Of a stretch of DNA of 64,000 nucleotides, positions 30,001 through 60,000 are shown piece after piece. Position 1 is the first letter of the stretch. Each line of letters begins with the position of its first letter. Position numbers: made by a program. The DNA is from an uncultured Nitrospiraceae bacterium (GTDB taxonomy: Bacteria; Nitrospirota; Nitrospiria; Nitrospirales; Nitrospiraceae). The stretch covers positions 64,001-128,000 of the forward strand of contig CAVPLT010000004.1 in assembly GCA_963706325.1 (NCBI GenBank), given 5' to 3'.

Positions 30001-33000
30001 GGAGGGTATGGCAGCCAAGCGGACGGTCACTCAATTGGAACAGGCCTTGCGCGAAAAAACACGCGAAGTGGATGTCCTGCATCGTATCAGCGAGTCGATC
30101 AACAATACCCTCGACCTTGAGTCGGTGCTTCGGCATATCGTCGATATGGTCGTAGAAGTGACCAAGGCCGATGCCTGCCTGCTTTATCTGATCTCCGACG
30201 GCAGGGACGAACTCATGCTACGAGCCTCGAAAAATCCCCATCCTAAATTGATCGGACGCATCACCATTGGGCTGGGCGAGGGGATCACCGGCTGGGTGGC
30301 CAGAGAACGGACTCGTGTGGTGATCCCGAATAACGCCAGCGATGATTCTCGGTTCAAGTTCTTTCACAACCTTCCGGAGGATCGCTACCAGGCCTTTGTC
30401 TCGGTGCCTATCACGACCAAGCTGGAGGTCGTCGGAGTCATCAATGTGCAGCACAAACGGTCGCGACGGTATCGGCCTGACGAGTTGGCATTACTCTCGA
30501 CGATCGCCACGCAGGTGGGCGGGGCCATCGAAAACGCCCGACTCTATGATCAGATGACACGCAAGGCTCTCCAGCTCGACACACTCTCACAGGTGTCGGA
30601 AACCGTGTCGTCAAACCGATTGATTGAGGATGTGTTGCAACTCATCGTCACGATGACGGCGCAAATGATGGGGTCGAAGATTTGTTCCATTATCTTGTTG
30701 GATCAGGCGACAGGCGAACTGCGAATCGCCGCCACGCAAAGTTTAAGCGAGCAGTATCGCCGCAAGCCCAATGTCAAGATCGGTCAAAGTATCAGCGGGC
30801 GGGCCGTTCAAGATCGTCGTCCGATCATCGTGCCCGACGTCACCAAAGAAAGCGCATATATGTACCCGGATATGGCGACAAAAGAAGGGCTGTGTTCGCT
30901 CCTGTGTGTGCCGATGCTGGTTCGGGAGAAAGGTATCGGGGTCATCAATACCTACACCTCTAAGCCGCATACCTTTACGGCCGAGGACGTCAAGCTCATG
31001 CAGGCCATCGCCAATCAGGCTGCAATTTCTATCGAGCATACGACGTTGCTTGAGAAGTCGTTTGAGATGCAAGAGGCGTTACAAGTCCGCAAGCTGCTCG
31101 ACCGGGCTAAAGGATACCTCATGCGGGCGAAGAGGTTGTCGGAGGAGGAGGCATTCAAGCTGATTCAGCGACAAAGCATGGACCTTCGCAAGTCCATGCG
31201 AGAAATTGCGGAAGCCATTTTGCTGGCAGGTGAAATTGAAGAGCGGGCCGACAGAAATAGAGGCTAGCCTGTTATTGAGGGCGTTCTGCTGGCCGCGCGG
31301 GAGGAGATGGTTTGGCGGGCGCGCTGCTTGGTTCGGTTTGATGCTCCCTCAGTTGCCGTCTCATATCTTGAAGTTCCTTTCGAAGTTCCTCGACCTCTGA
31401 ATCCTTCTTCTTCAAATCTTCCCGAATGTCCCGAAGGTCGGTCTCTGCCTCCGTTGGGTGAGCGAGCGGCCCCGCGGGCAATGCCTGTGTCTTCACGGCG
31501 GGCGGACTTGTGACGGCAATCGTCGGCGACGGTGGGGGCAGTCGTGCGAGGAGGTCATAATCGATGATCAGGACATTTGCCGGGTCTTCCGCAAATGTTG
31601 GTGCAAATTGATCGGAACGTAGGGCTTCCTCGGGCACGAACAATACCCGGCGATTTAGGAGGCCATGGGAAGTGGGCGTGCGGCGATTGGGCATGTTCAC
31701 GGTTTCCGGATCATCTCGCCGTTGACGGTACTCGGTCAAATAGACATAGAGTGAACGTCCGTACGCCAATACCCGGCCGCTCGTGATTTCTGGAAATGCA
31801 TGCCCAAGTGGAGGCTCCGAGGAGCCGACCGCTGCACCAACGCGTTCTCGATATCTCCCGTCATTAGTCTGTATCAGGCGAAACCCTACCTGTTGATCGG
31901 ACGCCGCCTGTTTCAAACCCTCTGCAATAGCAGGAGCCAGAAAAGCGATTTCGGTTCCTGAAAACACGGGGACGGTCGGCGTTTCGCTGGCGGTCAAGGC
32001 CCGTAACAGTCCGGTTTGTTCGCGAATGATCATGCCCTGTAAGCTGCGGGCGATCAGTGCTTGGTCGAGTCGAATAGGATGGCTTGCTTGAAACTGGCGA
32101 TCGGGAAGACGATCAAGAAATACCATGCCTTGCGCGGATTCCTCGACGAGCCAGTCGACTCGCGAACCGATCGTACATCCTGCAGCTAAGAGGCAGCAGG
32201 CCAAGGCGAATGCAACAGAGCGACGGCAGTCCATGAGGTGATTCCTGTTTCAAGTTCAGGCTGGACGGGCCTAGTGTAACATAGACAACCGTCGAAACAG
32301 GAAGACCTCGTCCCGTCTTATGCTTGACAGCGATGCGTTCAAAAGCGTATACACCCCACCTGTATGCGTTGGCGGTTTGGACAATGACGTCCTCATCTCA
32401 TCGCAGACATCAATAACGCAGAGGACAATGACGTCCTTTTGGTCCGAAGGCTGGACCGGAAGGGCGTTTTTTTTTGGCGCGTTGGCTCCTCCGGTCTGGT
32501 TCATTCCAATCATATGTAACCAGGAGGGCGATCAGGATGAGGGCACGAATGTCAGGAGGACTCATATGGGGGGCGGTCATGATGATGATCGTCGCCGCCA
32601 CGGTTTCGGTGAGAGCAGAAGAGCAGAGTGCGGGAGAGCAGAGTGCGGGAGAGGCGGCTGGAGCTGGACGTCTCAGCCGGGAAGTGGAAACGCCCCCGGC
32701 AGTGATTTGCGGAGGCTGTGTGAATCCCAGCTTTTGGACGCGAACTCAGGGCAAGGGCAGTATCGTCCCCTATGGCCGTATCGAATTGGATGCGATTTAT
32801 AGCAATAGAAATACCAACCCACTCGATCCCGGTCAGTTCAACGGCTACGCGACCGCCGCCGGAAAAAGCAGTAATGCCTCCTCCACCCTCAACCCTCGTT
32901 ATAGCGTGTTCGGCCTCCGAGCCGACCGGACTGACGGGAAACACACACTCACCGGTGTCGTAGAAGCGGATTTTTACAGCCAAACGGACAATGCCGGCAA

Positions 33001-57000: not shown

Positions 57001-60000
57001 CGGTGTCTACGGAGATTCGATGCGTGAGCAGGCGAATGAGATGTTCGGCGACGGCATCATGAGTGCGATCGACTTCACCCTGGATATGGAAAAGGTCACC
57101 GGAAGTCAGGGGGAGGCCCGCTGCAAGATTACACTGAACGGGAAGTGGCTCGAGTATAAGACGTTCTGAAACAGACGGCCATAGTGACGCTGTGACGGCA
57201 ATCAGACGAAGGGAGGACACCATGAACACGAATGCAGAAACGGCTGTACTGACACTTCTGGAGAGACAGGCTCCCCAAACATTCGAAGAATTGATGGCCC
57301 TTTCCGGTCTGAGCGCGTCACAGGTGTTGCTGGTGGTGGATCGATTAAGCCGGGAAGGCACGGTGGTATTGAGGAAAACCGGACCGGACTATTCCGTCGC
57401 ACTGGGAGGCATGAGATGAACAAGATCGAGGCGATCAAGACGGAACGGGACGGGTTAACAGTGCGCGACATGATCGCGCACTATGCGCTAACCGGGTGGG
57501 AGACCATTCCCGAGGACGATATTCAACGGTTGAAATGGTGCGGGCTATTCCTGAGAAATCCCACTCCCGGCCATTTCATGTTGCGCGTGCGTCTTCCAGG
57601 CGGACGAACGACGTCGGCCCAGCTTGAATCGCTGGCAGGCATTGCACTGCAGTATGGCAATGGTGTGGTGGATGTCACCACGAGACAACAAGTTCAACTG
57701 CGCCACCTGACGATTGAGCATATCCCGGCCGTGTTCGCGAAGCTGTCGGACGCGGGACTCACCTCGCTACAAACCGGCATGGATACGGTTCGCAACATCA
57801 TGACCTGCCCGGTGGCGGGCTTGAATCCGAATGAACTGCTGGATGGAACCGACATCGTTCGCGCCATCAATGAAGAGGTGTTGGGCAATCCCGCCTATAC
57901 GAATCTTCCTCGTAAGTGCAATATTGCCGTGACCGGCTGCCCGGACAATTGCCTCCATACGGAGACGCAAGACATCGCGCTCGTACCGGCCTATCACGAT
58001 CTGGGGCATGACAAGTGCTACGGGTATAACGTGCTGGTCGGCGGAAAGTTGGGTTCAGGTGGTTACCGAATTGCCAGTTCCCTGGATATGTTCGTGAATC
58101 CAGCCGAAGCCCTCGACGTCTGTCGGACCATCCTTCACATTTACCGCGACCATGGGCCGCGCGAGAATCGTACGCAAGCGCGCCTGGCGTTCCTCGTGGA
58201 AGCCTGGGGTGAGGCGCGGTTGCGGCAAGAGGTCGAGGTTCGGATGGGACGGACCTTGCCGGGAGCAGGCACCGATGCGAGGGCGGCAACCGAGCGTGAC
58301 CACATCGGCATCTTCCGCCAAAAGCAACGCGGCATGAATTATATCGGACTCAAGGTATTGGTTGGTCGCGTCAAGGCGGCCGATCTTCGGAATATTGCCG
58401 CGTTGGCGGCTCGGTACGGCACGGGCGAAGTGCGACTGTCGCCGGCGCAAGCTTTCGTCATCCCGCATGTCACTGATCGGTTGGTGGGCGAACTGGCAGA
58501 AGAGCCGCTCGTCAAGCAATTCGCCTACAACCCATCCGCTCTGTACAAGGGGCTCGTGAGCTGTGTGGGAAGCGACTATTGCAATCTGGCAGTTATAGAA
58601 ACCAAGAGCCGGGCTGTCGACACGGCACGTGCCTTGGAGCGTAAGCTGGGCGATGGTCTGAAGCCGATCACGCTGCATTGGTCCGGTTGTCCGGCGGGCT
58701 GCGGCAACCATCTGGTGGCGGACATCGGGCTTTTGGGAAAGAAGGCGAAGGTGGGCGGCAAGGTGATCGATGCGGTCGATATATTCGTCGGCGGCCGATC
58801 GGGGCCTGATCCCAAACTTGCCACCAAGATCATGGAAGATGTTCCCTGCGACAAGCTTCCGTCCGTGCTGGAGACGCTCATGCCTTACCATACGCGAGAA
58901 AAGATGCATCGTGTGCGTGGAAAGGCACTGTCCAAAGCGACGGGGTCGGGTAAGCCGGCGGCATCCGGTACTGAGGCGGCCGGAATCATGCCGGACCTAA
59001 CGCCTCAACCGTTTCCCGCCTAAAAACAGAGGCTTGAGCCGTTGTGACAGTTAGGCTATTCTCTTGAGCTTACCAAGGAGGCAGCATGGCCAAGAGAGTG
59101 AAATCAAGTGAGCAACCCGCCGAAGTTCTGACTCGGCATATCGAACAGATTCGTGAGACATTGGTGGCGTTCCAGCCGTTCCTATCCCGTCGAAAGGTAA
59201 CGGCCTCGTTGGACGGGTTCGATGAGCAAGCCGAGGAGGTACTTATCGAAACCTTCGGCGGAGCCTCCGAGGAACTCGAAGCCTATCAATACGCCAAGCT
59301 CGGCGAAGCCGCCATTGTGCCGGAGGAAGCGCAAGAGGCGGGGACGCACAATATAGACCGCGAAAGCCTCCATCAGCGGAAGCAGGTATTGGAAAGTTGC
59401 CTGGCGCAACTTGAGTTAAAGAAGACCGCCAGGGCGGGCCGGGATTGGCGAAAGACCGTCGGTGACCGGCTGGACGGCCGAACCGTGGCGGAGTTCATGT
59501 CCTCGGAGGTCCGGAGCGTGCATAAAGGCGCTCCGATCAAGGAGGCCGGGCGGTTGCTCCAAAAGTGGCGTATCGGGTCGCTGCTGGTGGATGACGGGTC
59601 GCGGTATATCGGCATTATCACCGACACCGACCTCAGCCGGAAAGCCGTCGCCAAGGGACTCGACCCGAATAGCGCGACGGTTACGTCTTGCATGAGCAAG
59701 GCGGTGGTCACCATCGAAGACAGCGAGCCGCTCATGGAAGCGCTTTCGTTGATGAAAAAAGAGAGCATCCGGCACCTGCCCGTCACGGAAGACGGCACCA
59801 TTATTGGAGTGCTGTCCGTGGGAGATTTATTGCGGGCCTATGAGAAGGTGCTTGAGCTGTAAATTTGGCAGCGGTAGGTGTTCCGAAAGATAGTGCGCTA
59901 CACAGCAAAAGGAGCAAAATATCGCCGAACTGTTTCTATTGGGCCAAGAAGCGTTTTCATTGGGTGTGGTGAGGATAGGTGGTTTTAAGCGCTGCAATCG

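Follow-up and report, generated by a model that had tools for sequence, protein, structure and literature searches.

Nitrospira are dominant nitrifiers, and our literature search found no paper that names a Nitrospira nitrogen regulator. The locus analysed here lies in a 64,000-nucleotide stretch (the window) of contig CAVPLT010000004.1 from an uncultured Nitrospiraceae bacterium, and it raises the question of what switches the nitrogen-assimilation genes gathered in it. We believe that the core of the answer is a single ANTAR protein, antiterminator of the nitrogen operons and lost from one comammox clade, for which there is good support in anatomy, co-variation, co-occurrence and a close precedent in the literature. 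A preliminary description of this DNA held that ANTAR antitermination governs the cluster; that reading stands on the same supports, and "governs" is the word we would keep conditional. Extended by glutamine-type sensing and by loss in clade A, it is in our judgment the best overall explanation, and one we hold with good confidence.

A regulator at the head of a nitrogen cluster

The genes of the cluster, with positions counted along the window, are:

30008..31267, + strand: GAF-GAF-ANTAR regulator, 419 aa (Pfam), directly 3' of aroB
31272..32234, − strand: conserved 320-aa gene without a Pfam family, divergent from the urea operon; synteny marker
32474..45532, + strand: urea operon (484-aa ORF, urtABCDE, lipoprotein, ureABC, ureFGD)
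46822..48591, + strand: nadE, glutamine-dependent NAD synthetase (Pfam)
48717..49603, + strand: broken gene ahead of amt (about 290 aa in relatives, signal-peptide-like start, weak DUF6733 match)
49642..55543, + strand: amtB, glnB, glnD, glnA (Pfam)
55852..59023, + strand: nirC, cynS, nirA (Pfam)

The heading gene had been assigned the ANTAR family PF03861, and Pfam agrees (residues 354-405, E 5e-19, 68.2 bits against a cut-off of 27.3), with no other match to this family in the genome. Two GAF stretches make up the rest of its Pfam architecture, which is GAF-GAF-ANTAR only and lacks a receiver domain. By alignment to 6wsh, with an inferred numbering offset of +2, the RNA-contact residues of EutV (Arg142, Lys143, Lys147, Lys149, Glu160 and Tyr164) correspond to R361, K362, R366, K368, E379 and F383, two of the six being conservative changes. 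No protein of the source genome reaches the family cut-off for NtrC and no NrpR was found there; sigma54 activators are many. The identities proposed earlier for nadE-amt-glnB-glnD-glnA and nirC-cynS-nirA all hold in Pfam, as do urt and urease in the supposed porin-urt-urease operon, where urtB and urtE are each split by one frameshift. The 484-aa ORF has no Pfam or NCBIfam match, so its "porin" label is unconfirmed. The 320-aa gene adjoins urt or amt operons in relatives.

By analogy, the mechanism is of a known kind, that of Geobacter GnfR. Passages of PMC2995071 describe GnfK/GnfR, in which an ANTAR protein antiterminates nitrogen-gene leaders (nifH, nifEN, nifX, glnK, amtB), and in Geobacter sulfurreducens GnfR binds a near-identical motif before nifH, glnK and amtB, one that matches the P1 sites described below almost letter for letter. 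GnfR as described there is nonetheless a receiver-domain protein, switched by a kinase under a sigma54/GnfLM cascade, whereas the present regulator has a built-in two-GAF sensor, its promoters look sigma70-type, and its targets are urea, cyanate and nitrite assimilation. A one-component precedent is NasR of Klebsiella oxytoca, an ANTAR antiterminator of nitrogen-assimilation genes that differs in its NIT sensor, its induction by nitrate or nitrite and its single operon; the relevant passages of PMC7496416 name no characterised one-component ANTAR proteins besides NasR and PAL.

Leaders in the window and among relatives

Five RNA elements, all on the + strand, accompany these genes:

32379..32475, + strand: leader 1, urea operon (sequence and fold); P1 32379-32392, 30-nt linker, P2 32423-32436
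46575..46677, + strand: leader 2, nadE operon (fold); P1 46575-46592, P2 from 46626 overlapping a terminator
48608..48719, + strand: fifth element (sequence and fold); twin hexaloops, 7-nt linker, no terminator
55620..55712, + strand: leader 3, first in tandem before nirC-cynS-nirA (fold); P1 55620-55633, P2 55661-55678 overlapping a terminator
55714..55816, + strand: leader 4, second in tandem (fold); canonical P2 from 55768 overlapping a terminator

Four ANTAR-type leaders, each with two A1/G4 hexaloops, had been claimed. Hexaloop and terminator are present at all four places (32423, 46626, 55661 and 55768), but two stems of at least 3 bp with A1/G4 hexaloops occur in leaders 1 to 3 only; leader 4 has instead a G1/G4 hairpin (55714-55730) 53 nt upstream, with a spacer hairpin (55744-55765) in between. 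P2 of leader 1 overlaps a terminator with a U-run, and sigma70-like promoters begin at 32324, 46529 and 55571 for leaders 1, 2 and 3, respectively. Across the genome, the hairpin-plus-terminator pattern matches four times, always within the cluster, and its reversed control not at all; a relaxed scan finds four twin hairpins, three with a terminator, all in the cluster, and one without. P2 and the terminator are predicted to be mutually exclusive folds.

This architecture recalls the EutV-bound eut leaders of Enterococcus faecalis, described in parts of PMC3369931 and PMC8934654 as having twin A1/G4 hexaloops, a C-G closing pair and a P2 that overlaps an intrinsic terminator, and the retained RNA-contact residues extend the likeness to the protein. 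At the same time, EutV is phosphorylation-gated, G1 loops are tolerated here, and the eut linker measures 5-12 nt against a median of 26 nt here (range 15-37, n=126), with only the fifth element inside the eut range; according to the same passages, lengthening the linker abolishes EutV antitermination. Long linkers are probably not unique to Nitrospira, since some Geobacter sites tabled in PMC3369931 are 60-72 nt long. That 2012 survey, in the sections concerned, placed predicted ANTAR leaders of other bacteria ahead of amt, PII, glnA, urea and NAD synthetase genes, and a term search of seven of its supplements did not find Nitrospira.

Relatives in a separate sample confirm that hairpins with terminators precede nitrogen operons and that their stems co-vary. 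An A1/G4 first hairpin lies ahead of 131 of 197 distinct first or solo sites (66 lack an A1/G4 P1), compared with a mean of 6.0 and a maximum of 12 in 200 shuffles, and at 4 of 34 second-in-tandem sites (30 lack it). Among 35 hand-picked P1 stems, 94.3% of cells pair, two-sided changes number 61 against 20.8 when shuffled, and the stems score 0.747 for covariation, where shuffling gives 0.299 and sliding no more than 0.291. The terminator (median energy -27.4 kcal/mol) co-varies with position 5 of the P2 loop, A standing opposite U in 49 of 54 cases and G opposite C or U in 128 of 128. No sigma54 motif precedes any of 127 leaders, and sigma70-like promoters precede 32 of them against 7 of 127 control windows. 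Through rearrangements the site tracks nitrogen function, standing before nadE, amt, glnB, nirC, nirA or an ABC transporter with cynS, and in 4 of 4 g6 loci (three by pattern, one by eye) before amt-amt-Rieske-cytochrome b-octahaem nitrite reductase; the cluster of N. moscoviensis contains four sites of this kind.

The search pattern, tuned on loci of the same taxa (160 of 221 sites), matches 50 of 52 ANTAR-positive genomes of family f1 against 6 of 34 ANTAR-negative genomes of genus g2, where two matches are true remnants and four lack a terminator by eye; a control pattern matches 16 times in 201 genomes. P1 is weak or missing in most f2 leaders, and the earlier statement that f3 genomes have no leader was a pattern miss, leaders being present there with other stems or G1 loops. 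In f14, of the same phylum, 18 of 19 genomes have the protein and our patterns found no leader in the 4 genomes searched or in 5 loci. Two amoA-positive g5 genomes (G161 and G175) have the protein and no match to the tight pattern, and the urea-locus leader is lost in G071 and G161.

The regulator would be a one-component nitrogen sensor and an RNA-binding antiterminator. Transcription would begin at the promoter just upstream of each leader. By default, in the modelled structures, the terminator would swallow the loop and 3' arm of P2 and transcription would stop. When nitrogen is short, an ANTAR dimer would very probably, to judge from EutV, NasR and GnfR, bind P1 and then P2, keeping the terminator from forming and letting transcription run on into the genes for urea, ammonium, cyanate, nitrite assimilation and glutamine synthetase. 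Passages of PMC6606698 and PMC7522533 report strong transcription of the N. moscoviensis cluster with nitrite as sole nitrogen source and, cited second-hand, N. japonica octahaem reductase transcripts that fall with ammonium; the N. moscoviensis urea genes are described there as constitutive, with moderate expression only.

The fifth element was absent from the earlier list of leaders and has 17 homologues in relatives. In its predicted fold, the ribosome-site and start region (48708-48719) is taken up in pairing with the second hairpin, by way of that hairpin's loop and 3' arm, so that this short-linker element may block the ribosome site; it could plausibly add a translational switch ahead of amt, with binding freeing that site. 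Mycobacterial ANTAR-target RNAs also have twin hairpins near the start codon and act on translation, but there, in the pertinent part of bioRxiv 10.1101/660928, ANTAR binding represses translation, the reverse of the release predicted here.

The candidate signal

Among solved structures, both GAFs come closest to one GAF from Geobacter (3e0y) and to a pair from EI-Ntr (3ci6, 3trc), the EI-Ntr folds matching at an rmsd of 2.7 A and 26-30% identity. NCBIfam ranks PtsP (EI-Ntr) first and NifA second for each GAF, at a similarity far below the family cut-off. Passages of PMC4848567 attribute to the EI-Ntr GAF the glutamine inhibition of that enzyme, whose output is autophosphorylation where the present regulator would act by RNA binding. 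Because both GAFs most resemble this glutamine-binding domain, we infer that glutamine is the likeliest signal, and on balance we lean towards glutamine as the off-signal, with the EI-Ntr-type GAF1 as its binding site and perhaps 2-oxoglutarate acting in opposition. ANTAR relatives with GAF1 only stand directly before glnA in 10 of 10 loci, seven of them titled Gottesmanbacteria, with a hairpin before glnA in six.

The same antitermination might instead be fed by PII (GlnB or GlnB-UMP), the GAFs reading nitrogen through it and not through glutamine directly. Some NifA proteins read nitrogen status through PII, and NifA is the second-best match of both GAFs; in addition, glnD is lost from most regulator-less genomes (see below), and an f2 genome with an ANTAR fossil (G084) lacks it too. 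Nonetheless, we consider PII sensing unlikely. For GAF1, the PtsP score is better than that of NifA by some eight orders of magnitude, genome G141 has a broken regulator and yet an intact glnD, and neither PII nor GlnD was found in 5 of 5 small genomes (completeness not given) that carry the GAF1-ANTAR-glnA unit.

We give less credence still to GAFs that answer to a substrate such as nitrite, cyanate or urea, or else to redox state or a cyclic nucleotide, with substrate induction as in nitrate-induced NasR (a passage of PMC7496416). Foldseek, given the whole-protein model, does rank the cyclic-nucleotide tandem GAFs of PDE2A, PDE5 and CyaB first, but these matches (19-20% identity, rmsd 8-22 A, far from the close EI-Ntr fit) reflect tandem layout, and a regulon that takes in unrelated substrates, and consists of glnA alone in other phyla, is in keeping with a signal of general nitrogen status.

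Erosion of the regulon in one comammox clade

The regulator gene is found in 155 of 200 genomes of the order. It is missing from 34 of 34 genomes of one comammox clade (in genus g2), and all 13 genomes of g5 (clade B with its kin) retain it. Each of the 12 positive genomes tested has exactly one ANTAR domain; the 34 have none. The earlier account of this distribution, and of its comammox contrast, is reproduced in pattern, not count for count, in this separate genome sample, where kin are not independent and the contrast is that of one clade with its relatives. The regulator-less genomes form one clade (tree support 100); amoA is present in 29, amoB in two of the other five, and the last three nest within. 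AmtB was not found in 32 and is a pseudogene in two, against 13 of 13 present in g5, a contrast that matches the clade A/B split published in passages of PMC6311188. Equating the g2 comammox with "clade A" thereby gains independent support; a record titled clade A (L050) carries a broken ANTAR gene.

We are all but certain that the regulator, the leaders and amtB have disappeared from clade A comammox, along with glnD in most of them (31 of 34 genomes). Urea-operon leaders are gone from 11 of 11 loci in 10 genomes, nine of which keep the divergent neighbour gene. The loss first described, of gene and leader deleted together, is real and no assembly gap, but a single joint deletion does not stand: two clade genomes keep orphan leaders, and abutment of aroB and nadE is alone no proof of joint loss, given that nadE follows an intact ANTAR gene without a leader in G001, G045 and G129. 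What happened is an erosion of the whole regulon, wider than earlier noted.

One large block deletion or an assembly gap, without selective meaning for regulation, is improbable and largely refuted. Although 32 of 34 genomes share the collapsed order aroB-nadE-glnB-glnA, and a single origin of full collapse survives an AU test (p 0.126), aroB and nadE share a contig in 34 of 34, six of which are single-contig genomes; nadE, glnB and glnA survive between lost genes; leaders vanished at the separate urea locus as well; and fossils of different genes persist in G111 and G141. The loss may also have been drift following the arrival of ammonia oxidation. That the leaders are fixed attenuators or relics, independent by now of the ANTAR protein, with nitrogen control left to another transcription factor, we judge very improbable, for although linkers are long, P1 is missing at many sites, f14 appears leaderless and sigma54 activators abound, the stems co-vary around conserved A1/G4 loop letters, loss of the protein goes with decay of the leaders, no NtrC at the family cut-off and no NrpR was found, and promoters look sigma70-like.

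Under erosion of an ANTAR regulon, the genes kept by clade A (glnB, glnA, urt, urease) are predicted to have escaped its control, a state that would be fitting for cells which draw their energy from ammonia and urea and to which closing down uptake in times of nitrogen plenty would bring no gain. More tentatively, the protein could stand in for NtrBC in Nitrospirales as a one-component master regulator that senses glutamine, binds RNA, acts on termination through long-linker leaders and on translation by freeing the ribosome site, and is common to lineages as distant as CPR bacteria. Clade A would then have dismantled both glutamine sensors (regulator and GlnD) and AmtB, becoming nitrogen-blind with constitutive urea uptake and glutamine synthetase, while clade B would still regulate like a nitrite oxidiser.

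Parts of the literature describe the comammox Rh/Amt split (PMC6311188) and the loss of nitrite assimilation and cyanase; in the texts covering the latter losses, as far as they were available, ANTAR does not occur and glnD appears in one figure legend only. What the present analysis provides can be tested in vitro without genetics: the protein by name, the precise RNA targets and a possible ligand. A glutamine-gated GAF-ANTAR, if real, would also serve as a compact nitrogen biosensor working at the RNA level. To the contrasts already drawn between the comammox clades a difference in regulation is added, with the prediction that nitrite oxidisers and clade B, but not clade A, repress glnA and urea uptake in response to ammonium, a contrast that would bear on who uses urea in soils and treatment plants.

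The proposed regulator and its leaders in the nitrogen cluster

The nitrogen-regulator system described here is, we believe, well supported. The preliminary description had placed an ANTAR protein (PF03861) at the head of the nitrogen cluster, a claim borne out by its Pfam domains and by the nitrogen genes downstream; the regulator is the sole ANTAR match genome-wide in the host, whose named close relatives include Nitrospira defluvii (glnD identity 85%). The features are:

30008-31267: GAF-GAF-ANTAR regulator gene behind aroB; two GAF domains and one ANTAR domain by Pfam
Downstream of the regulator: urtABCDE, urease, nadE, amtB, glnB, glnD, glnA, nirC, cynS and nirA, by family matches
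32423, 46626, 55661 and 55768: leaders 1-4, hexaloop hairpins with overlapping intrinsic terminators
48608-48650: the fifth element, a twin hairpin without terminator whose linker is 7 nt long, between nadE and amt, from sequence

The four leader sites are the only matches to the hairpin-plus-terminator pattern in the 4.2-Mb genome, and a reversed control gave 0. This pattern replaced a looser twin-hairpin one, dropped for its chance matches in ANTAR-negative genomes. Four ANTAR-type leaders, each with two A1/G4 hexaloops, had been proposed; all four terminator sites stand, and three have the A1/G4 partner hairpin 43-50 nt upstream, but its place is taken at the fourth (55768) by a G1/G4 hairpin together with a spacer hairpin. 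Leaders 1-3 pass as ANTAR targets but break the short-linker rule of the eut leaders. No Rfam family matches the leaders. A sigma70-like upstream motif occurs at 32/127 leaders versus 7/127 controls, a sigma54-like one at 0/127.

Elsewhere in the cluster, a frameshift interrupts both urtB and urtE (35350-36913 and 38996-39705), which relatives have whole; either decay or an assembly error may be the cause. An Rfam 5_ureB_sRNA match (85.9 bits, 41464-41760, minus strand), antisense within ureC, is probably coding-sequence similarity. The opposite strand after the cluster (59957-63976, minus) carries a gene of the AIPR family and fragments resembling glnE (582 aa and a 187-aa ACT-like ORF).

As for the fifth element, 15 of 17 homologues have a lowest-energy fold in which the second-hairpin loop pairs with the ribosome-site/start region; with both hairpins forced, the unpaired fraction of that region rises by at least 0.07 in 12 of the 17 and falls in one. 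A second element class in genus g5, with 18-nt spacing, has no unpairing effect (5/5). Translational activation is a fair, modest guess for the fifth element. The gene behind it (48717-49603) is in pieces here; in relatives it is about 290 aa and intact.

Conservation and distribution of regulator and leaders

The window and fetched loci yielded 231 distinct hairpin-terminator sites, in which the RNA is conserved at the level of structure. Of the 197 sites that stand first or alone, 131 have an A1/G4 first hairpin (P1) ahead of them (6.0 on average and at most 12 in shuffles), against only 4/34 tandem second sites; its spacing centres on 41 nt, equivalent to a linker of about 26 nt. In 35 P1 stems, hand-picked for forming stems and so with an inflated paired fraction, two-sided changes fill 61 cells versus 20.8 when shuffled. 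In the second hairpin (P2), loop position 5 tracks the 3' arm of the terminator, A standing opposite U in 49/54 cases and G opposite C or U in 128/128, which argues that the terminator is shaped to engulf the loop to which the regulator would bind. Where nitrogen genes are rearranged among relatives the leader site moves along, and in 4/4 loci a leader stands ahead of the octahaem nitrite reductase module, the substitute for nirA in other lineages. A 23-base leader motif has 62 matching stretches in 185,579 species genomes, 61 under Nitrospira-group titles and one titled 'uncultured bacterium'.

Among 200 genomes of the order, orthologues were called as full-length matches with best E-values of at most 1e-138, the remaining matches lying above 1e-24. 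So defined, the regulator occurs in 155: 52/87 in f1, 86/87 in f2, 17/21 in f3 and 0/5 in f4. Leader pattern matches were found in 50/52 positive f1 genomes, 73/87 of f2, 6/21 of f3, 0/5 of f4 and 6/34 of the regulator-negative genomes of genus g2. In the preliminary description the pattern gave no leader in three fetched f3 genomes; f3 leaders are present, often with different stems or G1 loops. G179 and four f3 genomes were rejected as regulator losses, being probable gaps: their aroB stands at the end of a contig or went undetected, and G179 has leaders. In f4, aroB was found in 4/5 genomes, and none of three long loci has an ANTAR gene behind it. Ten f2 loci (L121-L130) all share the order aroB-ANTAR-nadE-glnD with amt and glnA absent nearby; P2 and terminator occur in 9/10 and a clear P1 in two. 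Another f2 locus, L116 (G084), retains a 5' regulator fossil (codons 4-92) behind aroB, and glnD was not found; this is a second, independent regulator loss.

Antitermination by the regulator is predicted from RNA anatomy and comparison, and several observations weigh against it. Passages of PMC3369931 and PMC8934654 report that linkers as long as those of the leaders here disable EutV, and the canonical P1 is missing at many sites. Family f14, of the same phylum, also counts against it: the regulator occurs in 18/19 genomes, yet no leader turned up beside it or with the leader patterns searched. In f14 loci L274-L276, L278 and L279, where its identity is 43-45%, the regulator still follows aroB. 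Published expression data fit the regulator reading, indirectly; the passages of the guanidine paper (PMC11410670) contain none for urease.

Erosion of the regulon in clade A

The preliminary description had the regulator missing from g2 comammox and kept in g5, which is confirmed. In g2 it occurs in 8/42 genomes, with amoA in none of those 8; 29 of the 34 negatives carry amoA (and 2 more amoB), and in g5 it occurs in 13/13 genomes, 8/8 amoA-positive ones among them, a comammox contrast that, the genomes being related, counts as one evolutionary comparison, not 34. No ANTAR domain of any kind was found in the 34 negatives. Named loci and genome handles may represent the same genomes, and their counts were never summed. 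Equating g2 with 'clade A' had been inference; the AmtB pattern here agrees with the clade A/clade B split published in PMC6311188 and bioRxiv 10.1101/138586, and L050, a named record titled clade A (a label found in a passage of PMC6852473), has the broken regulator gene.

Gene and leader were said to have been deleted together, leaving aroB abutting nadE. The adjacency stands in 34/34 genomes: 33 have a gap of -1 to 126 nt, and in G141, which retains regulator codons 1-58 with a stop, it measures 355 nt. But the losses were piecemeal, and the bare junction is weak evidence alone since some positive genomes are also leaderless before nadE. The cluster is cut down to aroB-nadE-glnB-glnA in 32/34. 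Genome-wide, glnD was not found in 31/34; it is intact in G141 and fragmentary in G111, while G030, whose own cluster lacks it, carries one of 63% identity on another contig (C65:1266-3440), through either contamination or re-acquisition. No amtB was found in 32/34, and the two others, G111 and G141, carry it as a pseudogene. Loss of nirA and cynS was judged from fetched loci (4.8-12 kb). G111 keeps one decayed and one intact leader and a nirA fragment, which in L084 (6750-7490) follows these two fossil leaders and suggests that the clade A ancestor could assimilate nitrite; in G141 an orphan leader survives behind ureD. The urea locus, which lies apart, showed no leader in 11/11 loci (10 genomes), 9 of which keep the divergent neighbour gene. 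The regulon was thus eroded step by step, with the urea genes retained.

In a nadE+glnA+glnB tree of 71 rows (rows under 900 residues excluded) the 34 negatives form one clade with support 100. G036 and G081 had fallen inside it on aroB-only rows, an artefact of missing data; with nadE and glnA they join the positive clade. The collapse may have occurred one or more times. The best trees, those on 34 and 25 of the 71 rows included, nest the fossil-bearing G111, G141 and L077 with support 99, and aroB-nadE gap sizes vary by subclade; both favour at least two collapses, but a single origin survives the AU test (p 0.126).

Clade B and its kin (g5) may show partial relaxation, in weak or lost urea-locus leaders: these are altered in amoA-positive loci L138, L140, L141 and L143, G113 and G175 have weak terminators there (about -12 kcal/mol), and another gene stands in the leader's place in G071 and G161. 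For the antitermination reading these leaders are counter-evidence.

A candidate signal and known systems

Both GAF domains are nearest the GAF of EI-Ntr (PtsP) among solved structures and NCBIfam families, with NifA next; similarity is 26-30%, and a predicted model (pLDDT 75.8, pTM 0.44) overlays the PtsP GAFs at 2.7 A rmsd. According to a passage of PMC4848567, glutamine inhibits EI-Ntr through its GAF in Caulobacter, Sinorhizobium and E. coli. Regulator relatives outside Nitrospirales, from a range of phyla, adjoin glnA, nadE, amt or glnB. Only 9 full-length distant relatives emerged from a profile library search, in which multi-GAF proteins dominated. GAF2-only versions occur (L208-L210), and in 10 loci (L212-L221; small genomes, 7/10 loci titled Gottesmanbacteria, hairpin-terminator leaders in 6) a GAF1-only ANTAR gene lies immediately ahead of glnA. 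Neither PII nor GlnD was found in 5/5 tested genomes with this unit, which argues for direct metabolite sensing; the simplest candidate ligand would be the glnA product. A predicted complex of GAF-GAF with a GlnB trimer scored 0.01 and weighs neither for nor against a GlnB interaction. In the host genome NrpR was not found and no NtrC match reached the cut-off; given also the sigma70-like motifs, the regulator may be a top-level nitrogen switch, with other activators possible.

The regulator passes ANTAR-protein tests, and its system would work like Geobacter GnfR and EutV. A 2012 survey predicted that in other bacteria ANTAR proteins regulate the amt, PII, glnA and urea genes (PMC3369931), and a passage of a 2025 review names GAF-ANTAR merely as an architecture (PMC12591593). 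Literature searches on Nitrospira ANTAR or antitermination and on GAF-ANTAR with glutamine synthetase, with most subscription journals outside their scope, gave no account among the matches listed. The mechanism class is already known; the new parts would be the candidate ligand and the predicted consequence of loss, and the regulator system has real value for nitrifier biology.
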